NCBI GenBank assembly: GCA_041662545.1
Contig: JBAZSH010000002.1
Location: 2,239-66,238, forward strand
DNA: 64,000 bases
From: Minisyncoccota bacterium
GTDB lineage: Bacteria; Patescibacteriota; Minisyncoccia; Phycocordibacterales; DSPV01
Reading direction: 5' to 3'
Shown here: piece after piece, positions 499 to 64,000 of the stretch
How the letters are laid out: each line of letters begins with the position of its first letter
Position numbering within the stretch: position 1 is the stretch's first letter
The notes under the pieces: model-generated
Told to the model about the DNA's origin: nothing
The model's input: the letters and a program-made list of their open reading frames with translations, nothing else
Databases searched by the model: none
Translations under genes and position numbers: made by a program

Positions 499-584
499 TC
501 AGCACAATACTATATATGTTTACCTTAAACAAAATCATTTCAAAGCGGAAAAAATTGCTAACGCCTCTCTTGGCTGTTATCTAA

Positions 585-750: not shown

Positions 751-4052
<3,302 letters not shown>

Positions 4053-4970: not shown

Positions 4971-6094
4971 AGCGGATTTTTTTGGCATTCAAAAATATTG
5001 ATTGGTTACTACTGGCAGCGGTTTTACCTTTGCTTTTTGCCGGTCTATCGGTAATGAATTCTTTTACTGGTGAGAGTCAGTATTATGACCGGCAGTTAGT
5101 TTGGATTGCCTTTGCGCTAGCCATCTTTTTTATCTTCAGTTTTATTGATTTTCGATTTCTCCGTTCTAGTGGTGTTTTGGTCGCTTTATTTTTAGCGGCT
5201 ATCGGCACTCTGTTGCTTTTGTTTTTTATTGCCAATGTTGTTCACGGTACCAAGAGTTGGTTTTCCATTGGAACTTTTTCATTTCAGCCTTCCGATCCAG
5301 CCAAATTGATTTTAATTTTAGTTTTAGCTAAATATTTTTCCCGTCGGCACATTGAAATCGCTGACCTCAAACATATTATTGTTTCTGGACTTTATGCTCT
5401 GCTAATTTTTCTTTTGGTTTTGTTTCAGCCGGATTTTGGCTCGGCGATTATAATTTTTATGATTTGGCTTGGTATGGTATTGGTCTCTGGCATTTCCAAA
5501 AAACATCTGCTCTTAGTTTTTTTGACAACCCTTTCTGTTTTTTTAGTAATGTGGAGTTTTGTTTTAGCTGATTATCAAAAACAACGGGTATTAACTTTTC
5601 TTAACCCACTAACTGATATCCAAGGTGCTGGTTACAACGCTTACCAATCAACTATCGCTGTTGGCTCCGGTGAACTTTTGGGCAAGGGGGTTGGTTATGG
5701 CACACAATCGCGTTTGAAATTTCTTCCCGAATACGAAACCGATTTTATTTTTGCCGCTTTTGCCGAAGAATGGGGTTTTGTCGGGGTGGTGATTTTGTTT
5801 GGATTGTTTGGGGTTGTCATCTGGCGAATTTTAGCCACCGCTTTTTATGGTGCAACCAATTTTGAAATCTTGTTTGGTCTCGGTTTGGTGATTTTTTTGA
5901 CTAGTCATTTTGCTGTGCATATTGGTATGAATATTGGTTTGTTGCCAGTAACTGGTGTAACTTTACCATTCTTGAGTTATGGTGGCTCGCACCTTCTGAC
6001 CGAATTTGCTGGTCTTGGAATTTTGATGGGCATGCGCCGTTATCGCCGTGTTGCCCACAAAGAGGTAATGAAGAATGAATTTTTGGGGGTGTAA
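4967..6094 (+). CDS. FtsW/RodA/SpoVE family peptidoglycan glycosyltransferase
   Basis: 10-TM profile, conserved SEDS family blocks (GTKSWF, DFIFAAFAEEWGF, LPFLSYGGSHLL). Confidence 0.85.
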   Translation: MKRIFLAFKNIDWLLLAAVLPLLFAGLSVMNSFTGESQYYDRQLVWIAFALAIFFIFSFIDFRFLRSSGVLVALFLAAIGTLLLLFFIANVVHGTKSWFSIGTFSFQPSDPAKLILILVLAKYFSRRHIEIADLKHIIVSGLYALLIFLLVLFQPDFGSAIIIFMIWLGMVLVSGISKKHLLLVFLTTLSVFLVMWSFVLADYQKQRVLTFLNPLTDIQGAGYNAYQSTIAVGSGELLGKGVGYGTQSRLKFLPEYETDFIFAAFAEEWGFVGVVILFGLFGVVIWRILATAFYGATNFEILFGLGLVIFLTSHFAVHIGMNIGLLPVTGVTLPFLSYGGSHLLTEFAGLGILMGMRRYRRVAHKEVMKNEFLGV

Positions 6095-12401: not shown

Positions 12402-14955
<2,554 letters not shown>

Positions 14956-22238: not shown

Positions 22239-22306
22239 TATCGGGGGGGGGTAATATTTTAAATTTATCAATACACTTATAATTTCCTATAGTGTATAAT
22301 AAGTGT

Positions 22307-22885
22307 ATGGGAATTTTGGAAAAACAAGCCAAAAAAAGATTAAAGAGGGAAACCTTAAAGAAAATCGTCTTGGGAACAGTGGCTGCGGCTGGCGTTTTGA
22401 GTGTTACTTTAGTGGCACCGAACGCTTTACAGATTTTGAAAATGTTTGGAGTAATGCCGTACAAAAGGAGAAAGGAATTAATTAAAAGAGTGTATGACAA
22501 GTTGATAAATCAAGGCTATTTGGTTAGAAAAGATGGTTTTTTAGAAATAACCGAAAAAGGTAGCTTAACATTAGAATTATTAAGTGAGGGAAAAGCTAAA
22601 TTAAAGAAACCAAGAAAGTGGGACAAAAAGTGGCGCATTTTGATTTTTGATATTGATGAAAAAAGGCGACCCAAAAGAGATAAGCTGAGAAGATCGTTAA
22701 TCTCTGTTGGTTTCATGAGATTACAAGATAGCGTTTGGATATATCCTTATGATTGTGAAGATTTTGTCGCATTGCTGAAAAAAGATTTTAAGTTGGGAAA
22801 AGAACTGCTTTATTTGATAGTTGAAGAAATTGAGGGAGATTCTTTTTTGCGTCAGTGGTTTGGTTTACCCGAAAGAGAAAATTAA
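22307..22885 (+). CDS. winged-helix + Cas2/VapD-like fold protein (stand-alone)
   Basis: central wHTH (KELIKRVYDKLINQGYLVRKDGFLEITEKG); C-terminal WRILIFDIDEKRRPKRDKLRRSLISVGFMRLQDSVWIYP matches the Cas2 beta1/KRRxK/G-x-R-hQ-SV core pattern; start moved to the second ATG because the track start overlaps a TGTATAAT box. Confidence 0.4.
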   Translation: MGILEKQAKKRLKRETLKKIVLGTVAAAGVLSVTLVAPNALQILKMFGVMPYKRRKELIKRVYDKLINQGYLVRKDGFLEITEKGSLTLELLSEGKAKLKKPRKWDKKWRILIFDIDEKRRPKRDKLRRSLISVGFMRLQDSVWIYPYDCEDFVALLKKDFKLGKELLYLIVEEIEGDSFLRQWFGLPEREN

Positions 22886-23029
22886 TTTAATTATCGATCG
22901 ATCTTGCTAATTTTGCTACGCAATTCACTTATAATACATTTTACCCCATACACTTATAATATCCTATAGGAAAAATTAAGTGTAAGGCAAATAATTTCGT
23001 TAAAAATTTGTTATAAAAAATAAAAATAA

Positions 23030-28070: not shown

Positions 28071-28151
28071 GCGGAAAAATATTACCTAAAAAAATCTCAA
28101 ACTCTCCTCCGCGATTTTCATCAAATCCTCTTTTTGTTTCTGTCCCATACT

Positions 28152-28199
28152 TTTTTAAAGTTTTTAATTGGTAAGTTTTCTAATAGGGGTATTATCCAC
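28152..28199 (+). promoter_or_regulatory. shared promoter-like element X (copy 1)
   Basis: ttttttaaagtttttaattggtaagtttt..gggtattat.cac; 29/29 identical core with 36941-36988. Confidence 0.5.
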
Positions 28200-28225: not shown

Positions 28226-28330
28226 TTGACAAAAATAAGACAATTATTGTAAAGTGATAATCGGCAAAAGAGGCCACGGTGGTTTCTTTTAATCCAAGTT
28301 CTTTAACATTTTTTCAAAGGAGGTGTCGTC
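28226..28330 (+). promoter_or_regulatory. shared promoter + 5' leader element Y (copy 1) ending at ATG of dikinase-like gene
   Basis: ~100 nt near-identical to reverse complement of 33782-33889; contains TTGACA, TGATAAT, hairpin aaagaggccacggtggtttcttt, SD AAAGGAGG. Confidence 0.6.
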
Positions 28331-30913
28331 ATGTTCAAAGTCAATTCGAATGATGTGTGGTCAATTACTAACGAGCGACATAATGCCAGTCCGTTATTGG
28401 GATTTCTTCCCTTGTTTTCTTCGATGACAATCGATATTGAGAAAATCCTTAACGTGGGTCTTAATTTAGAGTTTCTCGTTGAATTTTCCAATCGTCATGT
28501 CAGAATGGCGGCCGTAGCGTCGCATTGGGAAAAAGCAGGTTTGCTCACTGTCGAGAAGCTTAATGCTGTTGAGTTTGTGGACCAAATTACAAATGGTCTC
28601 GCAAATGGAACGGTTAATCTTAATCGTCTAGGCGACTTTCTTTATTTTGCTGATTTTTCAAAGTTTACGGATCACAATCTCGCAAAAGAGATTTCCGTAA
28701 TGGTAGATGTACTCGGTGATTTTATTGTTTTTAACAATATTATCAATACATCCGATTTTTACCATGAAGTATTCACTCGCAAAATATTGGAGTGTTTACG
28801 AACTTCTTTGGGTGTCGCTTCGTCTCTTAAAGCAGAGACAGTGTACTCTGTTTTAACAACTCCCGAGAAGACTGTGTGGATACAGGAAGAGGAGACCAGT
28901 TTGCTTGAAATTCTTACTCTGGTCTGTAAAAATCCTCGCCTTGTGTCTCTTGCGCATGATGAAAAATTAGATGAATTTTTCCATGGCGTCAGCAACATGT
29001 TTGGGTCGGAACTTGAGATGCATGTTAAAAAGTACTTCTGGATTCGGTACGAACAGGAAGGAGAAATTCTTTCTGGCAAACATTTTTGCAATGAACTAGC
29101 CAAAATGTTACGCGACGGAGTTGATGCTACAAACGCTTTAAATTCTGTTAATGAGAGAAGATTGCGTGCTAAAGAGCAATTTGACTCAATTAACTCGACG
29201 GTTGTTTTCAATTCCGAAGCAAAGCACTTACTTGAGGTAGCTCGTAAATTCGTTTACTGGAAACTTCATTTAAGAGAGGTGAAGGTACGATTTTATTGCT
29301 GCGCAGACAAGTTATTGGATGAGGCAGCAAAAAGGCTTAACCTGAACCGCTACCAAGTACGACACTTGACTGTCGAAGAGCTAACTGGTGCATTGTGCGG
29401 GACAATTCAACTGGATACTGTCTCCTTGGATAAGAGAATGGAATACAGCGTATTTTATTTTGCCTCGGGGTGTATTACAGTTTACGAAGGCCAGGATGCT
29501 CGGGATATTTTTAGTGTTGTCAAACAGGAATCTGTTGTTACCACAGATAGTGTTAGTGGTGTTTGTGCCTTTCCTGGTTTAGCGGAAGGCGTGGTAAAAC
29601 AAGTTCTTGATGTGAGTGATGGGGATAATTTTCTTCGAGGAAGTATCCTTGTTGCTTATATGACAGATGTTGGCGTTGTACCTGCTATGAAAAAAGCGAG
29701 TGCGATTGTCACAGATGTTGGCGGAGTTACATGTCACGCCTCAATCATTGCTCGTGAATTTGGTATTCCGTGTCTCATCGGAACAAAAATCGGAACCAAG
29801 GTTCTTCTGGATGGATATACCGCACGAGTGAATGCCACGGAGGGTTTTTCTAAGGTTTTATCCAAAGACGTTAATCCTCAAAAAGCATTAACTGCAAACT
29901 TAGCCGGAGATGAAGACTTGATCGTTTGTAACTTTCAGATTCCCGTGTCTGGTTTTTCAAGAAAAGAAGCCAGTCATGTTCGGAGTCTCCAAAAAACTCT
30001 TTCAAGTGATGTGCAAATCGCAGGAGGAAAAGGTGCTTCATTGGGGCAAATGCTACAATTGAGTTTACCTGTTCCAAAAGGGTTTGTCGTCCTAACATCA
30101 GCTTTCGAAGAGGTTTTCTTTGGAACCGAATACGGCGCGCGCATAAATCAACTTCTTCTTGAAATTCGTGATCAGCGCTCTCTGCGCCGAGTTTCGAAAA
30201 TGATTCAAGAGTTGGTTATCAATGTGGAAATTCCTTTCCAAATTGAACATGACATCAGGGATTCCTTTGCAGATCTGCCCTTTGACTATGTTGCGGTTCG
30301 TAGCTCGGCAACTTCCGAAGACTCGGCCACAGCATCTTGGGCGGGTCAACTTGATAGTTTTCTCAACACCACTCATGACGACTTATTACTTAATATTCGT
30401 CAGTGTTGGGCATCACTCTTTTCGGATCGTGCCATTTCGTATCGTATTCATTGCGATTCGAAAGACATGTCCGTTGCCGTTGTGGTTCAAGGAATGCTTG
30501 ATAGTCGAATTTCGGGAACTGCATTCTCTGTGCATCCGGTTACAGGACAGAGCGATGTCATTCTCATCGAGAGCTGTATTGGTCTTGGTGAGACGCTCGT
30601 TCTCGGAAAAGAGATGCCAACCACATTCCTTGTGAAAAAAGATAGTTTAGCTATCTCTCATAAGGATGTCGGTGAACAGAAAAATGGTTTGAGGCGTTCT
30701 GCCAACGGAAAGGGAAATGAGTTGTTTGTGGTGGATTTTACTATGCAGCCTCTTTCCGATTTGGAAGCAAAAGAAGTAGCTCGACTCGTCATTGATGTTG
30801 AGCAAAAATTTGGCTTCCCTGTTGATGTTGAGTGGGCGTACGAAGGGAATTGTCTTTGCTTACTGCAAAGTCGTCCCATCACTACAACGTCAAAGATTCC
30901 AAAAGTTCAATAA
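28331..30913 (+). CDS. PEP-utilizing-enzyme family dikinase-like protein with permuted domain order (helical N-domain - phospho-His swivel domain - C-terminal ATP-grasp)
   Basis: His domain VTDVGGVTCHASIIAREFGIPCLIGT at ~aa 460-490; PPDK_N-type ATP-grasp at C-terminus (GGKGASLGQM, VAVRSSATSEDSATASWAGQ, VVVQGML, SCIGLGETLV). Confidence 0.7.
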   Translation: MFKVNSNDVWSITNERHNASPLLGFLPLFSSMTIDIEKILNVGLNLEFLVEFSNRHVRMAAVASHWEKAGLLTVEKLNAVEFVDQITNGLANGTVNLNRLGDFLYFADFSKFTDHNLAKEISVMVDVLGDFIVFNNIINTSDFYHEVFTRKILECLRTSLGVASSLKAETVYSVLTTPEKTVWIQEEETSLLEILTLVCKNPRLVSLAHDEKLDEFFHGVSNMFGSELEMHVKKYFWIRYEQEGEILSGKHFCNELAKMLRDGVDATNALNSVNERRLRAKEQFDSINSTVVFNSEAKHLLEVARKFVYWKLHLREVKVRFYCCADKLLDEAAKRLNLNRYQVRHLTVEELTGALCGTIQLDTVSLDKRMEYSVFYFASGCITVYEGQDARDIFSVVKQESVVTTDSVSGVCAFPGLAEGVVKQVLDVSDGDNFLRGSILVAYMTDVGVVPAMKKASAIVTDVGGVTCHASIIAREFGIPCLIGTKIGTKVLLDGYTARVNATEGFSKVLSKDVNPQKALTANLAGDEDLIVCNFQIPVSGFSRKEASHVRSLQKTLSSDVQIAGGKGASLGQMLQLSLPVPKGFVVLTSAFEEVFFGTEYGARINQLLLEIRDQRSLRRVSKMIQELVINVEIPFQIEHDIRDSFADLPFDYVAVRSSATSEDSATASWAGQLDSFLNTTHDDLLLNIRQCWASLFSDRAISYRIHCDSKDMSVAVVVQGMLDSRISGTAFSVHPVTGQSDVILIESCIGLGETLVLGKEMPTTFLVKKDSLAISHKDVGEQKNGLRRSANGKGNELFVVDFTMQPLSDLEAKEVARLVIDVEQKFGFPVDVEWAYEGNCLCLLQSRPITTTSKIPKVQ

Positions 30914-30918
30914 ACCAA

Positions 30919-30960
30919 AGCCGGTGTATCGCAAAGATACATCGGTTCTTTTTTATTTTT
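30919..30960 (+). terminator. rho-independent terminator
   Basis: ccggtgtatcgcaaagatacatcgg + TTCTTTTTTATTTTTTT. Confidence 0.7.
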
Positions 30961-31034: not shown

Positions 31035-31661
31035 TTGAATATGAATATTTATCTTATTAGACATGGAGAAAGTACTTCTGATATAAAAAATAAGTATGAT
31101 GGTGATTATGACGACCGTTTGACCGAAAGTGGACTCCAAGACGCCAAGATTATTGCTAAAAAACTAAATGGGAGCAACATTGAAGTTGTTTTTACGAGTC
31201 CAAAAATTCGTGCACGCGAAACATCAAAAATTATCAGCGAGGTTCTTGGTTGTAAAACTTCCATAGTGGACGATCTTGCCGAGCAGGATATTTATGGTGC
31301 ATATTTGGAGCTTGGTAAAAATCAGCCGGAAGAAGAATACAGAAGACTTGGTGAGATTCTTGTAAATCGAGACAATGTCGTTGAAGGTTCTGAAACATAC
31401 AAAAATTTTAAAGAACGCGTAATAAAATGTTTTTTTGACATTACGCATCAATCGTTTGAGAATATTGCAATTGTGACGCATGGCGGATCGATTCGTTGCA
31501 TTTTTCGAGAAATACTCACATTGGGTGAATTCAAGGAGATTGGTAATGGCGCAATAATCGAACTCAAAAAAGAAGGTTCTGCGTTGTCGGTCGTGAATAT
31601 GGATCACGCCATTTTAAAGCAGAGCGTTTTGACTGGTATCGGCCAAGATGTTAAAAATTGA
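31035..31661 (+). CDS. histidine phosphatase family (phosphoglycerate mutase-like)
   Basis: LIRHGES (RHG) motif, second His in VTHGGSIR. Confidence 0.8.
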   Translation: MNMNIYLIRHGESTSDIKNKYDGDYDDRLTESGLQDAKIIAKKLNGSNIEVVFTSPKIRARETSKIISEVLGCKTSIVDDLAEQDIYGAYLELGKNQPEEEYRRLGEILVNRDNVVEGSETYKNFKERVIKCFFDITHQSFENIAIVTHGGSIRCIFREILTLGEFKEIGNGAIIELKKEGSALSVVNMDHAILKQSVLTGIGQDVKN

Positions 31662-31760
31662 AAGACTTTTTATAAAAGAAAAAACCGATGCATCTTTCGA
31701 CACATCGGTTTAAATTATCATCTACGATAGATATCGTGAGTGATTATTTTTAACAAAAAC

Positions 31761-32807: not shown

Positions 32808-33778
32808 GATTTCTCCTTGTCGTTGGATGTTTCCACTGACTTCAAATTCATAACGAAAACCCTTCGTTTTTTGAAGCCCAGTGTATCGAGTGACGCCATC
32901 AAATCAAGTGAGACATTTCTTTCCGTAAAAGGATGAATTGTCACACAAGAAATATCTTGCATTGCCAAATATTTTGCCGAAGACAATATGAGCGACCTGA
33001 TAACCGTAGATGCTTCTTTTGAACGATCAATGAAGATGCGTTCAAGGGTTGCCTTACTTGTTGGCTTATGAGCAGATGCTGTTATCAAACCAACAAGAGA
33101 GTCATTTAAAAAAGCACCGTGGATTACTTGCGCCAAATCAAGACTTGGCGTGTCTTGGTGATTCAAATCAGAGATTAGTATGCTTAAAAAGTTGGCATAC
33201 ATTGCTTGGCCTGTATCGCTTATGCCGATCTTCTTGATTTGAAATCCGCCTTCTTCTGATTCACAATTTACGAGCTTAGGCTGATTTACGTACCACTGCG
33301 TCAAAATTCCTTCAGAATAATGATGTTGGGTTAGTAAACTAGACATTGCCGTGTTTGTGGTGTGACAAAATGAGCGAAGTGTTTTTATGCCAACTCTTGT
33401 TGCGCGATTTTCGAATTCGTTGAGTAATTTACTGGCAATACCTTGTTTTCGGAAGCCTTCCTTAACGTGAATATTTTCCAAGGTAGCAATTCGTTCTTTG
33501 TCAAAGATGGCTAATAAAAATCCTACAATATCCTTTTTTTGATTTATAGCCACCAGCATTGAGCCATCTTTTTCCGTGGCCCAATTTTGCAACGCTTCTT
33601 CTGACCAGAAAATGATTTCATAGCCAGTCGCAAATTCCTGCGTGTTTTGTCCAGCTTGCATTACGTATGCAAGATGTTTTTCGGTGCAAAAATCCTCAAT
33701 AGTTACACTATTAAGGGAAGTATAATCAGTACTCATTTTGATGGCCTCGTTTCCACAGTTTGGATTGATTTCAGACAT
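32804..33778 (-). CDS. GNAT N-acetyltransferase with extra N- and C-terminal regions
   Basis: acetyl-CoA binding motif region (HVKEGFRKQGIASKLL) in the middle of a 324-aa protein. Confidence 0.6.
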   Translation of the reverse strand: MSEINPNCGNEAIKMSTDYTSLNSVTIEDFCTEKHLAYVMQAGQNTQEFATGYEIIFWSEEALQNWATEKDGSMLVAINQKKDIVGFLLAIFDKERIATLENIHVKEGFRKQGIASKLLNEFENRATRVGIKTLRSFCHTTNTAMSSLLTQHHYSEGILTQWYVNQPKLVNCESEEGGFQIKKIGISDTGQAMYANFLSILISDLNHQDTPSLDLAQVIHGAFLNDSLVGLITASAHKPTSKATLERIFIDRSKEASTVIRSLILSSAKYLAMQDISCVTIHPFTERNVSLDLMASLDTLGFKKRRVFVMNLKSVETSNDKEKS

Positions 33779-33781
33779 AGT

Positions 33782-33889
33782 AAAGTTTCCTTTGAAAAAT
33801 TGTTAAGGAACTTGGATTAAAAGAAACCACCGTGGTCTCTTTTGCCGATTATCACTTTACAATAATTGTCTTATTTTTGCAAGGGTTCC
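33782..33889 (-). promoter_or_regulatory. shared promoter + 5' leader element Y (copy 2) ending at ATG of GNAT gene
   Basis: reverse complement nearly identical to 28226-28330 over ~95 nt. Confidence 0.6.
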
Positions 33890-34029
33890 ACTTTTTAATT
33901 TTCAATTTTTGCAACCGGTGATAAGATTGTTTTCATGAACCAAGATTGTATCTTTTGTAAAATCGTAAAGAAGGAATCACCGGCGAATATTGTTTTTGAA
34001 AACGATGATTTTCTGGCTTTTTCTCCTAG

Positions 34030-34064
34030 TTCCAAGATATCCGGACGATGGTCTAGATCTTTGG
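34030..34064 (+). promoter_or_regulatory. shared palindromic operator-like motif Z (copy 1)
   Basis: ccaagatatccggacgatggtctagatctttgg; 16/16 core shared with 42977-42992. Confidence 0.45.
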
Positions 34065-34213
34065 CTAAACTAGGACATAATCGATTGTAATTTTGCGGCT
34101 TTTCGTTTTGGCGGTATAATGTTCGTAATGAAAGGTTTGATTTCTGACGAGGATTTATCAAAAAAATATCCGACAAGGGGGAGTTTTGTGGTGCAGGGAA
34201 AAAAGATAGTAAC

Positions 34214-35290
34214 ATGACAAAAGAAGCCGTTATTGAAATACTCGGTAAGCTCCAGGTGCTTAAAAAGAAAACCGGTATAGAAATTGTTGATACCCATGTA
34301 CACCCAGGAGATGTTATGGGTGTGGTTCATTATTTAGAAACAAAATTCAGCGATAATCACTTATCGAAAGATTATCTAGAATCGGGAATTTTAGAGAAAT
34401 TTAATTACAGCAAGTTTGAGAAATTTGGGTCGAGGATAGTGTTCAAAATTTTTCCGGAATTTGTTAACAAAACTGTTCAGCAAACATACGGGACATACAA
34501 TAATACTGACCTTTCGAATGAAATGATAATTTCGCTGGTAGACAAAAGTGTTCTTCTTCCTATTGAACCGTGGCTACCAACAAAAATAGTGGGTGATACA
34601 TATAAAAATAAAAAGAATTTTATTATTCTAGGTTCAATTGATGTCTGCGGAATAGAGAAAGGAAATATTGAAAGGATAATCATTTCTTATATTCAAGATT
34701 ACAAAATAGTTGGCCTCAAGTTTCATCCAAACTTACAAAATTTTAAACCTCAGCCCAAAGATAACTCGCTGGAAATTGCAGACAAGCTGAGGGTAATATA
34801 CGACATCGCACAAAAACACAAACTTTATTTACTTTTTCATGGCGGTATATCTAATTTTACTAAACACATTAATCTAAAATACCACGATGCTTCAAGCCGA
34901 AGCCGCACTAACGCGTTCCTTAAGAATTTTTGCTCGGCAAATGGTCAAAGCGAATTATTTGAGAATTGGAATATGCCAATAATTATTGCTCACCTCGGGC
35001 ATTACGGGATGATCGATGTTGATTATGGTTTACTTAAACTTATAACTAAACGATTTAACAATGTGTGCTTTGATACTTCAGGAATATCGTCAAATGTTAT
35101 CGCAAAAGCACTTCAAGTTGTTCCGAGCGAGCGTATAGTTTTTGGTTCCGATGCAGCATATAATAGAATGGCTTACAATCTTGCTTTTTTGTATAATGCA
35201 ACTATGATAGCAAATAACGGCGAGGCAAAAACTGAAATGTTAGTTAATGTGTTGAGTGGAAATTTTTATAACAAAATCTTAAAACATTGA
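34214..35290 (+). CDS. amidohydrolase-2 family metal-dependent hydrolase (TIM barrel)
   Basis: VDTHVHPGD metal-binding HxH, later HLGHYG and D in FGSD. Confidence 0.65.
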   Translation: MTKEAVIEILGKLQVLKKKTGIEIVDTHVHPGDVMGVVHYLETKFSDNHLSKDYLESGILEKFNYSKFEKFGSRIVFKIFPEFVNKTVQQTYGTYNNTDLSNEMIISLVDKSVLLPIEPWLPTKIVGDTYKNKKNFIILGSIDVCGIEKGNIERIIISYIQDYKIVGLKFHPNLQNFKPQPKDNSLEIADKLRVIYDIAQKHKLYLLFHGGISNFTKHINLKYHDASSRSRTNAFLKNFCSANGQSELFENWNMPIIIAHLGHYGMIDVDYGLLKLITKRFNNVCFDTSGISSNVIAKALQVVPSERIVFGSDAAYNRMAYNLAFLYNATMIANNGEAKTEMLVNVLSGNFYNKILKH

Positions 35291-36879: not shown

Positions 36880-36940
36880 GCGGGGTTGTTGGTGAAATAA
36901 AATTAGGCCGAATTTTTAAACTCTAAAATCCATCACGGGT

Positions 36941-36988
36941 TTTTTAAAGTTTTTAATTGGTAAGTTTTTCGATATGGGTATTATACAC
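36941..36988 (+). promoter_or_regulatory. shared promoter-like element X (copy 2)
   Basis: see 28152-28199. Confidence 0.5.
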
Positions 36989-37100: not shown

Positions 37101-38665
37101 ATGTATAATGACAAACAAAAAATAATTAATGACGAAACTCTTCCAAGGTCTATAAGATCTGTGGTGCGCATGTATCCGTCCAATCAAGTCAACAGACTGT
37201 TTTATGGAGGATTGCCCCACCTTGGGAATGCTCTTTTAGGCTCTTGGAGTTCTCCTGAAATACAGGAAGCGGCCAGAGCCTATGAGGACTACAGTCTTTC
37301 TTCAAATCTTCTTATAAAAGGTTTTAAAAGTCCCACTTTAGATAAAGTAAGATTGGGTGGTGGAAGTCCCGCCCGTTTTAAACCTTTTGATAAATGTCTA
37401 ACTAACATAAAGTATTCTTTGGAAAATAGAGTACTTTCCGATTATCCGCTGGCCGCAGGCGATAATGCCGACAAGGTGCCTATCATCGAATACTTTAAGA
37501 AGCTCTATTCTTTGAAAATAAATGAAAATATATTATTTTCACTCATTCCAGCACCCAAGCGTTCACGCTGGTTATGGAGGCGATATTGGACTATGGAGAT
37601 GTGGTCTTAATGACAGCCCCGAACTACGGTCTTTTTTCGTTTATGCCGGAAAGAGCAGGGGGGCGGGTTAGGCTTTTGCAACTGACAAGTCTTGACGGTT
37701 GGAAGGTTGATCCAAAAAAACTCAAGCGACTTATTGTTGAAATCAATAACGAGCTTGAATCAGATTACGATACAAATCGCGGAAAATATATTTTCAGGCG
37801 GTCCGATTTGCCGCCAAGAGTTTCTGTTTTTGTAAATTTAAATCCACACAATCCGACAGGTATGGTTTACAGTCAGATGGACAAATCGTTATTGTTGGAG
37901 ATTTCCAATGTCTGCAAAGAAACAGGCGTATTTATCGTTGACGATTTGGCTTATGCGGGCCTAGAATATGATAGAAATAACCCCGCGTTGCCTATATGTA
38001 GTTTAAGTGGCCATTTTGATAATACAATAACGTTGTATTCGCTTTCCAAGTCTTACGGCTTAGCCGGCATAAGGTCGGGGATGGTTGTCGCTAACGAAAT
38101 AATCAGCTCTTTGATACGCGATGAAATATTTCAAGTTTCCGACTCGCTGTCTTTGGTGCAATCGTCTGCCATGAGTGCGATTTTTTCATCAGATGGGACC
38201 CTGGCGAAAGAAAGAGAGGACTATCTCGCCCATGTTACAAAGGAGTATTATCAAAGATACATTTTTGTAAAAGCTATTATTGTGGGGGCTGATAACCTCA
38301 AAAAGCAAGAAAAAAAGCTGCTCGATAAAATTCTTAATGATAATAGGCTTAATATTAATGGTGCCGAGTCTATGAACGGCATCAAGGATGTGAGCATAGC
38401 ACTTGAACCGGAGTCGGGGTTTTTTGTAATATTGGATTTAAGCAAGTTACTCGGAAAATCTTACAAAGGATTTAGAATCATTGATGACAAAACCATGTTG
38501 CAGTTCTTATACACTTCAGGCAACATCAAAGTTTTGCCCGGCAAGGCATTTTGTTGGAGTGATCGTGAGCAGCTCGTCGTAAGAGCAACTACCGCATTAG
38601 GATATGCTGAATTGTTAAAATCCTTTTTGAGACTTAAGGCATCTATAGAAGAACTACTAGTATGA
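37101..38665 (+). pseudogene. class I/II aminotransferase interrupted by a -1 frameshift near 37523-37535 (or sequencing error)
   Basis: ORF 37101-37610 and ORF 37574-38665 are parts of one protein; downstream frame extends back to 37526 as KYIIFTHSSTQAFTLVMEAILDYGDVV; NPHNPTG and SLSKSYGLAGIRSG (PLP-Lys) present. Confidence 0.6.
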
Positions 38666-42758: not shown

Positions 42759-42960
42759 TTTGCCACCTCGCTTTCTCTGTGAGAATGTACTGTTCTCAAA
42801 ACCAAGCTCGTTGATTTTTACTGAAATTTATCTTACCATTTTTTCTTAACTTACGCAATGGTAAAGCATTAGTGTATAGTAAGTCACATCGTTTGGGTGT
42901 TTGGGTGTTCGATACAAAGCCATACATAATTGAGCGGGCATTTCCATATTCACATTGTGC

Positions 42961-42992
42961 CGAGATACCCGAATGGTGGTCTAGATCTTTGG
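42961..42992 (+). promoter_or_regulatory. shared palindromic operator-like motif Z (copy 2)
   Basis: ccgagatacccgaatggtggtctagatctttgg. Confidence 0.45.
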
Positions 42993-43024
42993 TTGAAAAA
43001 TAAGTTATAGTTGTAATTATAAAT

Positions 43025-55077: not shown

Positions 55078-56262
55078 GAAGTTAAAAAAGTTTACCCTGA
55101 GCGAAGTCGAAGGGTTTTTGTCGGCCTCTCTGGTGGAGTTGATTCTTCTGTTTCTGCGGCTTTGCTAAAAAAAGCCGGTTATGAAGTGACCGGAGTTTTT
55201 ATCAAGGGTTGGCATCCGGATTGGGGTCCTTGTGGTTGGCAGGAAGATCGTTTGGACGCCATGCGGGTTTGTGCTCATTTGGGCATTCCTTTTTGTGATT
55301 TAGATTTGTCAAAGGAATACAAAAAAGAGGTGGTGGATTATATGATTGATGAATACAAAGTGGGCAGAACGCCAAACCCTGATGTGATGTGCAATCAGAA
55401 AATTAAATTCGGCGCGTTTTTTGATTGGGCATCGGCACAAGGCGCGAATTTTGTGGCGACAGGACACTATGCCCAAATTAAAAATTTGAAATTAAAAATT
55501 TCTAAAGATAAGAACAAAGACCAAACTTACTTTCTGTGGACACTTACGCAGAGAGAACTTTCACGGACGCTTTTTCCCGTTGGTGGTATGATCAAATCGG
55601 AAGTGCGTAAGTTGGCGAAAAAATTCGGTTTGCCAACGGCCGAGAAAAAAGATAGTCAAGGTTTGTGCTTCGTTGGCAAAGTAGATTTACCGGATTTTCT
55701 TTCACACTTTTTGAAGCCGAAACGCGGCGATGTTTTACTTGCCCCGAACGGAGTTGAGGGGGGTAAGGGTGGCACAAAAATCGGCTGGCACAAGGGCGTT
55801 TTCTTTCTGACCATAGGCCAACGGCACGGTTTTACTATTACCAAAAAGACCCCAAATGATTTGCCTTATTACATTGTTGCCAAAGATGTTAGAAAAAACA
55901 CTATCACGGTTTCTCATAAGCTCTTTCCCCAGAGGTCAGACCTTTCTCTGACTTCAAGGTCTGACCTCGCAAACTCTGTTGTCTTGCGCGATGTTAATTG
56001 GATTTCACCCATTTTTGATTTTAGAGGTCAGACCTCTAACTCTAGGAGAGGTCTGACCTCTCCTAACCTTTTTGCCAGATTTCGCTATCGCCAACCGCTT
56101 CAAGAAATTCATCTTAAGAATAAAAGGTTGAACCTTAAATCTGTAGAAAGGTTCAACCTTGAAATCCGATTTCAAAAACCTCAACCCGCCATCGCTCCCG
56201 GTCAGTCGCTAGTAATTTATTCTAAGACAGAAGAATGCCTCGGCGGCGGGATTATTGTATAA
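55066..56262 (+). CDS. mnmA: tRNA 2-thiouridylase MnmA carrying three in-frame 37-nt hairpin insertions in C-terminal domain
   Basis: PP-loop SGGVDSS, catalytic Cys pairs; ~50 aa longer than typical due to insertions at 55933-55968, 56024-56060, 56124-56160. Confidence 0.85.
   Translation: MKSQEVKKVYPERSRRVFVGLSGGVDSSVSAALLKKAGYEVTGVFIKGWHPDWGPCGWQEDRLDAMRVCAHLGIPFCDLDLSKEYKKEVVDYMIDEYKVGRTPNPDVMCNQKIKFGAFFDWASAQGANFVATGHYAQIKNLKLKISKDKNKDQTYFLWTLTQRELSRTLFPVGGMIKSEVRKLAKKFGLPTAEKKDSQGLCFVGKVDLPDFLSHFLKPKRGDVLLAPNGVEGGKGGTKIGWHKGVFFLTIGQRHGFTITKKTPNDLPYYIVAKDVRKNTITVSHKLFPQRSDLSLTSRSDLANSVVLRDVNWISPIFDFRGQTSNSRRGLTSPNLFARFRYRQPLQEIHLKNKRLNLKSVERFNLEIRFQKPQPAIAPGQSLVIYSKTEECLGGGIIV
55933..55968. 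repeat. 37-nt palindromic hairpin element (type B: gaggtcagacct-loop-aggtctgacctc)
   Basis: inverted 12-mers with 13-nt loop, in frame within mnmA. Confidence 0.85.
56024..56060. repeat. 37-nt palindromic hairpin element (type B, second copy)
   Basis: gaggtcagacctctaactctaggagaggtctgacctc. Confidence 0.85.
56124..56160. repeat. 37-nt palindromic hairpin element (type A) in mnmA
   Basis: aaggttgaaccttaaatctgtagaaaggttcaacctt. Confidence 0.9.
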
Positions 56263-63268: not shown

Positions 63269-64000
63269 ACTTGGACCCTGACCTTGTGTCAGGGTCCATA
63301 TTTTTTTGAAATTATTTGGTAAAAACCAGTGAATGTTTTTATCTTTTTTAAACCAAGTCATTTGTCTTTTGGCATAGCGCCAGATTTCAGTGAAGAGTTT
63401 TTCAATCATTTCTTCTTTGGATCCGTCAGTCGGCGGATTATTTTTGAGATATTTCGCAAGATAACGGTATTCCAAACCAAGTTCGTTCATTCGTTTCCAT
63501 GATAAACCCTGCTGATGTAATTTTTCTGCTTCAGCGATCATTCCTTGTTTCAAGCGCGCAAGTAGGCGAGTGCGAATTTTTTTCTTCAATTTTTCCGGCG
63601 GTAAAGTTAAGCCAATTTTTATGACTTTAAAAGGTTGAACCTTGGATCTGAAAAAAGGTTCAACCTTTATTTCTTTTTCTTTTGATAAGGCGACCTCTAT
63701 TGCCCGAATTAAACGGCGGGGATTGTGGTGGTCAATTTTTTCTGCCCGCGCCGGGTCCAGTTTTTTTAACATTTCAAAAAGTTCGCTGGCCGATTTTTTT
63801 GCCAATTGGGCGCGAAGTTTTGGATTGGGTGGCGCGGGCGCCAATTCAATTTCGCCAAGCAGGGCAGAAATATAAAAACCAGTGCCACCGCAAATTATGG
63901 GAGTGTGGCCGCGTGAAAAAATCGCGGCGATTTTTTCACGCCCTAATCTGACAAAATCAGCAGCAGAAAATTGTTTTTTTGGATTAGCAACATCCAAGAG
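63257..64000 (-). CDS. miaA: tRNA dimethylallyltransferase (N-terminus beyond window end), carrying a type-A 37-nt hairpin insertion
   Basis: P-loop region PIICGGTGFY near window end; conserved IPT family blocks. Confidence 0.8.
   Translation of the reverse strand, partial: LLDVANPKKQFSAADFVRLGREKIAAIFSRGHTPIICGGTGFYISALLGEIELAPAPPNPKLRAQLAKKSASELFEMLKKLDPARAEKIDHHNPRRLIRAIEVALSKEKEIKVEPFFRSKVQPFKVIKIGLTLPPEKLKKKIRTRLLARLKQGMIAEAEKLHQQGLSWKRMNELGLEYRYLAKYLKNNPPTDGSKEEMIEKLFTEIWRYAKRQMTWFKKDKNIHWFLPNNFKKIWTLTQGQGPSSNR
63272..63304 (+). terminator. rho-independent terminator (overlaps 3' coding end of convergent miaA)
   Basis: ggaccctgaccttgtgtcagggtcc + TATTTTTTT. Confidence 0.7.
63631..63667. 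repeat. 37-nt palindromic hairpin element (type A) in miaA
   Basis: aaggttgaaccttggatctgaaaaaaggttcaacctt, identical to ligA copy. Confidence 0.9.

Follow-up and report, generated by a model that had tools for sequence, protein, structure and literature searches.

A Duplicated Promoter-Leader Element With a Probable boxA-Type Nus Site Upstream of Two Operons in a Patescibacterial Genome

Gene Content of the Locus and Structure of Element Y

The DNA analysed here, a 64-kb stretch (64,000 nucleotides; hereafter, the window) of contig JBAZSH010000002.1 from the Minisyncoccota bacterium assembly GCA_041662545.1, contains two near-identical copies of a promoter and 5' leader, designated element Y. 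Copy A precedes a gene for a dikinase-like protein on the plus strand, and copy B, in inverted orientation, precedes an operon on the minus strand comprising genes for a GNAT protein and an S-Me-THD/DUF917-like protein. The succession of a promoter, a 5'-end stem-loop, a boxA and, 8-10 nt further on, a strong Shine-Dalgarno (SD) sequence suggests that Y is a complete expression-control cassette present in two copies. BoxA is the binding site of NusB/NusE(S10) and the Nus-loading signal of rRNA operons. Element Y is probably a duplicated boxB/boxA-type leader for the loading of Nus factors, the copies of which are kept alike by gene conversion.

The inverted repeat detected by the repeat finder spans 92 nt (28230-28321 on the plus strand and 33788-33879 on the minus strand), with 97% complementarity and arms located 5466 nt apart. 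Pairwise alignment of the two copies revealed three substitutions and no indels, namely one in the hairpin stem (G/A), one in the box (T/C) and one at 28309/33800 (T/A). Direct reading, alignment and the repeat finder agree on the near-identity of the two regions described in the original prediction, and the similarity extends far beyond promoter hexamers, as had also been proposed. The identity begins, however, about 4-10 nt inside the limits originally assigned to it, and an adenine previously regarded as optional is a substitution rather than an insertion. The left edge of the identity lies inside or just 3' of the -35 hexamer (TTGACA in copy A, TTGCAA in copy B). On the other side it stops at the SD sequence, 9-10 nt before the ATG codons at 28331 (plus) and 33778 (minus), consistent with the earlier observation that each copy ends shortly before its start codon.

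Within the window, a 25-mer of element Y searched with up to three mismatches has only two sites, copies A and B (shuffle expectation 0.00). The hairpin string and the box with its TTTCAA context are likewise confined to these two copies, and no third copy of Y is present. These scans indicate a shared transcribed 5' leader specific to the two operons, as originally suggested, and the possibility of a generic promoter and ribosome-binding site consensus was rejected.

Copy A begins with a predicted sigma-70-type promoter (28226-28255, plus strand; -35 TTGACA 28226-28231, 18-nt spacer, -10 TAAAGT 28250-28255) that scored 10/12 in the promoter scan and carries the palindrome ACAATTATTGT (28240-28250) in its spacer. 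The 5'-proximal stem-loop AAAAGAGGCCA-CGG-UGGUUUCUUUU, found in minimum free energy folds at 28266-28290, occupies a boxB-like position, and the 40 nt 5' of the box fold with z = -2.9. It is separated by a 7-nt gap from boxA GTTCTTTAACAT (28298-28309), located 33-22 nt 5' of the ATG at 28331; nucleotides 28298-28308 of the box match the pattern GYTCTTTAANA exactly. The SD sequence AAAGGAGGTG (28316-28325) precedes the start codon. The predicted transcript comprises about 65-70 nt before the start codon, its 5' end lying about 5-10 nt before the hairpin.

The same elements are present in copy B on the minus strand. Its predicted promoter (33854-33882; -35 TTGCAA 33882-33877, 17-nt spacer, -10 TAAAGT 33859-33854) scored 8/12, under the threshold of the scan, and is followed by the predicted 5'-proximal stem-loop AAAAGAGACCA-CGG-UGGUUUCUUUU (33819-33843), boxA GTTCCTTAACAA (33800-33811) and a region (33776-33793) containing the SD sequence AAAGGA (33793-33788) and the ATG at 33778. 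This box has one mismatch (T5 to C) to GYTCTTTAANA and is the top match to the position weight matrix (PWM) in the window, with 18.0 bits. The hairpins predicted in both copies (28266-28290 and 33843-33819) have the common form AAAAGAGRCCA-CGG-UGGUUUCUUUU, in which replacement of the stem G of copy A by the A of copy B changes a G-U pair into an A-U pair.

The dikinase-like gene (28331-30913, plus strand) encodes an 860-aa protein in which Pfam recognizes a PEP-utilizer swivel domain and, C-terminal to it, a PPDK_N ATP-grasp domain. This PEP-synthase-like protein is permuted, with an N-terminal stretch of about 430 aa lacking any family or PDB match, then the swivel His domain and the C-terminal ATP-grasp. 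It has no PEP/pyruvate-binding barrel, and its halves are encoded by separate genes in some relatives (e.g., loci L010 to L014). In the PDB sequence search, the dikinase matched only in the PEP-synthase ATP-grasp and swivel domains, and the GNAT protein had no match. The GNAT gene (33778-32804, minus strand), which encodes a double GNAT protein of 324 aa, is followed in its operon by the S-Me-THD/DUF917-like gene (32807-31761, minus strand), both assigned by Pfam. A histidine-phosphatase gene (31041-31661, plus strand; Pfam) is located between the two converging units and has its own, different promoter and leader, with the extended -10 TGATAAAAT and with neither boxA nor SD sequence.

Intrinsic terminators were predicted by the terminator scan 3' of the dikinase-like gene (30919-30947, plus strand) and 3' of the GNAT/S-Me-THD operon (31682-31711, minus strand). 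They are near-copies of each other, CCGRTGTRTCG..AAAGATRCATCGGTT followed by a T run, and the same terminator recurs in relatives (L025, 2235-2305 and 9058-9128). Taken together, the near-copy leaders and near-copy terminators indicate that the control signals of the two units are duplicated at the 5' as well as the 3' end. Another duplicated upstream segment, D4, adjoins the left edge of copy A (28151-28199) and is also present 5' of the open reading frame (ORF) starting at 37101 (36940-36988; 90% identical), with weak similarity continuing to about 28230 and 37010; it was also found in L018 (47-121). D4 is promoter-like (TTGGTA-16-TATTAT) and has an A/T-rich upstream tract. Its position next to copy A makes the upstream region of the dikinase gene a mosaic of two repeated modules.

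Two further features near copy B were considered and dismissed. The terminator-like hairpin early in the GNAT coding region (33716-33694) is not conserved, and its T run corresponds to Asp-Phe-Cys codons. The 106-aa ORF located 5' of copy B (33895-34215, minus strand), a candidate regulator, is probably spurious, as nonsynonymous differences from L018 exceed synonymous ones. In the same region, the plus strand (33941-34090) reads QDCIFCKIVKKESPANIVFENDDFLAF.. and then a stop, and contains a 49-nt repeat shared with 42949-42997; presumably it represents a truncated HIT-family gene fragment.

The Gene Module and Its Leaders in Related Patescibacteria

Close homologues of the dikinase-like protein were found only in metagenome bins of Patescibacteria (candidate phyla radiation, CPR), including Magasanikbacteria at 90% identity. 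No protein identical to the window dikinase is on record, and a genome scan with the single protein was also blank. The comparison covered about 25 homologous leaders from contigs of related Patescibacteria. The four genes co-occur throughout the fetched contigs, and their order is shuffled. In the window and in L001, L005 and L018, the dikinase and phosphatase genes, in this order, converge on the GNAT/S-Me-THD operon (dikinase 90-93% identical to that of the window in the three loci), while in L043 and L022 the dikinase, phosphatase, GNAT and S-Me-THD genes follow one another in the same direction (89-91%). The arrangement is divergent in L039, where the dikinase gene (78%) faces away from the phosphatase, GNAT and S-Me-THD genes, and in L036, where the phosphatase and dikinase genes (dikinase 76%) face away from the GNAT and S-Me-THD genes. 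L048 carries a single operon of dikinase (45%), GNAT and S-Me-THD genes, and L008 has divergent units with an outward-facing leader pair.

At every locus holding both units, the regions upstream of the dikinase and GNAT genes are alike, irrespective of whether the units are convergent, divergent or co-directional. The two leaders share 130 nt at 86% identity in L001, 77 nt at 91% in L005, 84 nt at 96% in L018 and 58 nt at 79% in L008, and in L039 about 150 nt, including the first codons, are essentially identical. In L045 the leader is present on each of three separate units. The phosphatase gene always has its own different leader, and the sequence upstream of this gene, although conserved from locus to locus, does not contain the box.

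Genes for serine recombinases, IS1595 transposase, restriction-modification enzymes, a Shedu-like SduA_C protein, KilA-N and a Gp49/HTH pair are present in the neighborhood of the module in L001, L003, L007, L036, L045 and L047. Toxin-antitoxin genes likewise surround the module in relatives. Such neighbors, together with the shuffled gene order, suggest that the module is mobile or island-borne. It matches no PADLOC defence family, and no relatives were found on the IMG/VR viral contigs scanned.

All the homologous leaders contain a promoter-like sequence, TTGACA/TTGCTA-17/18-(T/C)AnnAT, at the equivalent place, and in every leader the predicted promoter is 40-50 nt 5' of the box. Lineages whose dikinases are about 90% identical have promoter-proximal parts and hairpins that cannot be aligned with one another, the identity of about 0.53-0.62 being equal to the background, whereas the A/B-type leaders within one genome are 0.65-1.00 identical in the eight loci aligning over about 100 nt. 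High identity within genomes combined with background identity between lineages is a signature of concerted evolution, and gene conversion is the likely process by which the two copies of a genome stay alike.

At least six unrelated hairpins occupy the equivalent position, each ending 1-9 nt before an invariant block. Besides the window type, there are a CUGGAA..UUCCAG type, AACCGAUA..UAUCGGUU in L020, a long hairpin closed by CUGA..UCAG in L008, L036 and L039, three different hairpins in L045 and GACUUAC..GUAAGUC in L025; the loops also vary by lineage (CGG, UUAGGUU, UUUU, AAG). The conserved hairpin of the original prediction is therefore kept in relatives with respect to its position, but its stem and loop sequences are replaced even between close relatives. 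Folding z-scores are negative for 17/19 leaders. In the eight closest hairpins, 89% of cells are paired in register, compared with 16-64% in slid registers. The presence of G-U pairs in the stems indicates that they are RNA-level features rather than DNA palindromes.

The Invariant 12-mer and the Alternative Explanations

With promoter and hairpin replaced between lineages, the sole sequence persisting across the 25 leaders is the 12-mer G(T/C)TCTTTAACAA. C4, T6, A9 and A11 are present in all 25 leaders, and G1, T7, A8 and A12 in 24 of them. The consensus of the 25 leaders, G-T/C-T-C-T-T-T-A-A-C-A-A (GTTCTTTAACAA or GCTCTTTAACAA), equals the boxA of the Escherichia coli rrn operons, GCTCTTTAACAA, read directly. 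Besides the 12-nt consensus GCUCUUUAACAA, boxA can be recognized by the pattern GYTCTTTAANA, which is matched exactly by 12/25 leaders, copy A included, and with one mismatch by copy B. This pattern is the published one for boxA searches, in which a distance of no more than 50 nt from the start codon was required (Baniulyte et al., PMC5725501), and copy A agrees with it in both sequence and distance. The C4T/T6C and C4A mutations abolish the function of the suhB BoxA (PMC5725501); the critical C4 and T6 of this E. coli site are invariant in the leaders (25/25).

The context of the 12-mer is also of the rrn type. In rrn operons, the promoter is closely followed by boxB, boxA and boxC, in this order from 5' to 3', and boxA is both required for recruiting the factors and enough to do so (PMC10250234). 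The E. coli rrn P2 leader, read directly and found in 5426/5426 genomes, consists of the promoter TTGACT-17-TATTAT followed by GCCGCTGAGAAAAAGCGAAGCGGC ACT GCTCTTTAACAA, with the hairpin GCCGCT..AGCGGC located 3 nt before boxA. The same arrangement, a hairpin 1-9 nt 5' of the box, is observed in all lineages carrying the homologous leaders.

The box is specific for the leaders of the module. In 360 kb of related loci, 27 PWM matches of at least 14.5 bits were found, of which 25 are module leaders. The only good intergenic boxA-like match outside the module is GTTCTTTAAAAA in L007 (804-815; 16.8 bits), located directly past a promoter-like sequence and about 30 nt 5' of a 181-aa ORF; it may be a further Nus target.

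A candidate boxA, TACCTTAAACAA, followed by AATCATTTCAAAG, is present in the leader of the 23S rRNA gene of the window (521-532, plus strand), about 18 nt past the predicted start of the 23S transcript, which is preceded by a predicted promoter (TTGACA 470-475, TATACT 492-497). This leader reads TACCTTAAACAA AATCA TTTCAAAG (521-545). The composite of a box, 1-7 nt and TTTCAAAG has three sites in the window, the two Y copies and the 23S leader, and occurs in 0/300 shuffles, the pattern having been chosen post hoc; as an internal control, it is suggestive but not decisive. Use of the IF-2 gene as an anchor for related 23S leaders led to a related contig that is not syntenic, and MAFFT alignment of the 23S leader with Y was uninformative. 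The 23S gene has its own promoter (470-764 region) with no 16S gene before it, and the IF-2 gene runs divergently off the left end of the window. The 23S leader also contains a weaker boxA candidate, GCTTTTTGTCAA (640-651), and a terminator-like hairpin, AAATCCCGCTTTGAAAAGCGGGATTTTTG (about 583-612). A near-consensus boxA string within the mature 23S rRNA, TTTCTTTAACAA (1872-1883), is the second-best PWM match of the window and is probably coincidental. The 23S rRNA gene is interrupted by a group I intron (3358-3641; Rfam RF00028, 55 bits).

Several observations weigh against the assignment of Y to Nus-loading leaders. No boxC-like GU-rich element was found 3' of the box, where the SD sequence and the start codon are located instead, although boxC is dispensable for recruiting the factors and has no clear role (PMC10250234). 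Drift of the boxA consensus with phylogenetic distance has been reported (PMC7665894); the presence of a perfect E. coli-type box in a CPR bacterium cannot be taken for granted. By itself, the pattern GYTCTTTAANA shows no enrichment in the window (2 occurrences, 0.78 expected), and the argument thus rests on conservation rather than on occurrence. Folding support for the hairpins is moderate, with a mean z of -1.4. The eight closest hairpins lack double-sided compensatory changes, containing only G-C to G-U and A-U to G-U changes, so the support for the hairpin comes from its conserved position and not from formal covariation. The 23S candidate TACCTTAAACAA agrees with the consensus at 8/12 positions, its PWM score being below the 9.3 bits of the 20th-ranked listed match. 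Finally, nusB, nusE, nusG, nusA and rho were not found among the approximately 30 window ORFs scanned.

The G-free block could also be a translational enhancer, a ribosome standby site or a site for another RNA-binding protein, its likeness to boxA being due to chance and the hairpin acting as a stabiliser of the mRNA 5' end. The block is G-poor and unstructured and in most lineages forms part of the extended ribosome-binding region, with a very strong SD sequence located 8-12 nt downstream; in several leaders its pyrimidine-rich 5' half can pair weakly with the SD, and 5'-terminal hairpins are known mRNA stabilisers. This explanation is nevertheless unlikely: a boxA match at 11-12 of 12 positions with invariant C4 and U6 would be very improbable for an unrelated motif, and the order of hairpin and box copies that of the rrn leader. 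Moreover, the distance between box and SD sequence reaches 22-33 nt in L045_SMT, L025 and L023, while that between hairpin and box stays short. A DNA operator or promoter module for a dedicated transcription factor, with the palindrome ACAATTATTGT or that of the hairpin as its site and the box as a part of it, would fit two operons that appear clearly co-regulated and the presence of the palindrome in the promoter spacer of both window copies. However, 21 homologous promoter spacers show no enrichment of dyads (mean arm of 4.0 both observed and shuffled), leading to the rejection of the spacer palindrome as a conserved operator. The G-U pairs of the stems would be mismatches in DNA, and the stem sequences differ between close relatives. 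The box itself is not palindromic, its distance from the promoter ranges from about +33 to about +75, and no regulator gene is conserved beside the module, all of which makes an operator very unlikely.

The transcription attenuator or riboswitch-like, ligand-sensing leader envisaged in the original prediction is consistent with the U-rich 3' side of the window hairpin (UUUUAAU) and with the conservation of the leader and its specificity for a metabolic-looking module, but appears extremely unlikely. Only about 5-10 nt separate the predicted start from the hairpin, leaving no room for an alternative upstream structure; the terminator scan did not call the hairpin, and in relatives it is followed by CCAGCUC, GGUUC and similar sequences rather than by a U run. 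A ligand-binding fold is contradicted by the replacement of stem and loop between relatives with about 90% identical proteins and by the lack of any relevant Rfam match, at gathering thresholds or at E<=10, in the window element or the related leaders. Sequence conservation is confined to a linear 12-mer, for which a protein partner is known. There is hardly more to be said for the arms of the repeat marking a mobile or invertible 5.5-kb cassette, as its terminal inverted repeats or its recombination sites. They do bracket the four genes exactly, the neighbors vary between loci and include serine recombinases and IS1595 transposase, and the repeat is precisely where many metagenome contigs stop; L044 does so at the same base of the repeat at either end (1-40 and 5490-5531), and L001-L006 and L021 also end inside the leader repeat. 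However, assemblers break at any inverted repeat longer than k, and the boundaries of the repeat coincide with the -35 hexamer and the start codon. A Pfam check of about 30 window ORFs revealed no recombinase or transposase domain, and no relatives turned up on the viral contigs scanned. In L043 and L022 the two leaders point the same way, and in L036, L039 and L008 they face outward; the leader thus follows its two transcription units in any orientation, which excludes terminal repeats of a cassette.

The window also contains other repeats. Palindromic intergenic repeat families (13242-13291, 56116-56173 and 63631-63680; 55931-56061), of the AAGGTTGAACCTT..AAGGTTCAACCTT and AGAGGTCAGACCTCT types, are REP- or terminator-like. 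A gene for a PaaX-like regulator (22292-22885) is flanked by repeats of about 40 nt (22271-22313 and 22945-22990; 81-85% identical, and readable in direct as well as in inverted orientation), which may be operators.

Proposed Nus-Dependent Control and Comparison With Known Systems

If element Y is a Nus-loading leader, the NusB-NusE(S10) heterodimer would bind the nascent boxA RNA during transcription of the leader. NusA and NusG, with SuhB and S4 where present, would then join and modify the elongation complex as on rRNA operons, and both units, the dikinase-like gene and the GNAT/S-Me-THD operon, would be tied to one Nus-dependent control. Near-identical promoters and hairpin-boxA leaders make co-regulation of the two operons probable, and it is probably exerted through the Nus complex rather than by a riboswitch or attenuator. 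The location of the box 8-10 nt from a very strong SD sequence, in front of translated genes, tilts the expected effect slightly towards repression, the effect demonstrated for both tested precedents in which a boxA near the SD sequence precedes a protein-coding gene (suhB and a ParE-like toxin); protection from Rho termination, of the rrn and CRISPR type, is a somewhat less favored alternative. The weak pairing between the 5' half of the box and the SD sequence could add a translational component.

A far more speculative scenario, for which the chances appear very slim, assigns the module a toxin-like or defence function on a mobile element. The effector operons would be held off by Nus/boxA repression and released upon titration or hijacking of the Nus factors, for example by a phage or upon a collapse of translation or rRNA synthesis. 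The phosphatase, with its own boxA-less promoter, would serve as a constitutive antidote, and boxA would act as a "guard" sensor of the host transcription machinery.

To our knowledge, boxA/Nus regulation outside rRNA has been demonstrated experimentally in only a handful of cases (suhB, one toxin gene and CRISPR arrays), all in well-studied phyla, and our literature search found no paper linking boxA to Patescibacteria. The Nus-loading function of Y, if true, would extend the boxA/Nus regulon to the CPR, where an E. coli-type boxA would be recognized. It would also provide a clean natural case of concerted evolution, in which the two regulatory copies of a genome stay identical although lineages differ in the sequence they carry. 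The combination of a hairpin, GYTCYTTAAYAA and an SD sequence offers a handle for searching metagenomes for the module and for further Nus targets.

Like Y, the E. coli rrn leader consists of a promoter, a stem-loop a few nt past the start and, after 1-9 nt (3 nt in E. coli), the 12-mer G(C/T)TCTTTAACAA. Unlike it, Y precedes protein-coding operons and continues after 8-10 nt with an SD sequence instead of boxC and a leader-trailer helix; its hairpin sequence is unrelated, its host belongs to the Patescibacteria/CPR, and its two copies evolve in concert. Phage lambda nut sites also combine boxA with a stem-loop (boxB) in a leader and act via Nus factors. In these sites, however, boxA precedes boxB, which binds the phage N protein, whereas Y has the rrn-like order of hairpin before boxA, with a hairpin loop that is not conserved. 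A lambda-type nut site was rejected for this order and for the differences in loops between lineages.

Closer parallels among protein-coding genes are the boxA sites in the 5' untranslated regions of suhB in E. coli and Salmonella, located 6 nt from the SD sequence, and of a ParE-like toxin gene in Citrobacter koseri, for which repression by NusB/E has been shown experimentally (PMC5725501). As in these leaders, the boxA of Y is no more than 50 nt from the protein start, is close to the SD sequence (8-10 nt, compared with 6 nt in suhB) and has the form GYTCTTTAANA with C4 and T6 kept. In contrast to them, Y is linked to genes of other functions, occurs in paired rather than single copies and is a predicted Nus target. 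No hairpin has been recorded in front of the suhB box; a structured stretch has been noted between nutL and the N gene. BoxA elements 5' of CRISPR arrays in Salmonella and many other genera protect untranslated RNA from Rho and are thought to have arisen repeatedly, in several phyla (PMC7665894). They resemble Y in being recruited outside rRNA operons, in a leader, but the RNA 3' of Y is translated, and the need for antitermination is less obvious. Although boxA at non-rRNA targets is thus already known, element Y would add a CPR host, protein-coding operons preceded by a full boxB-boxA arrangement, and a duplication whose copies evolve in concert.

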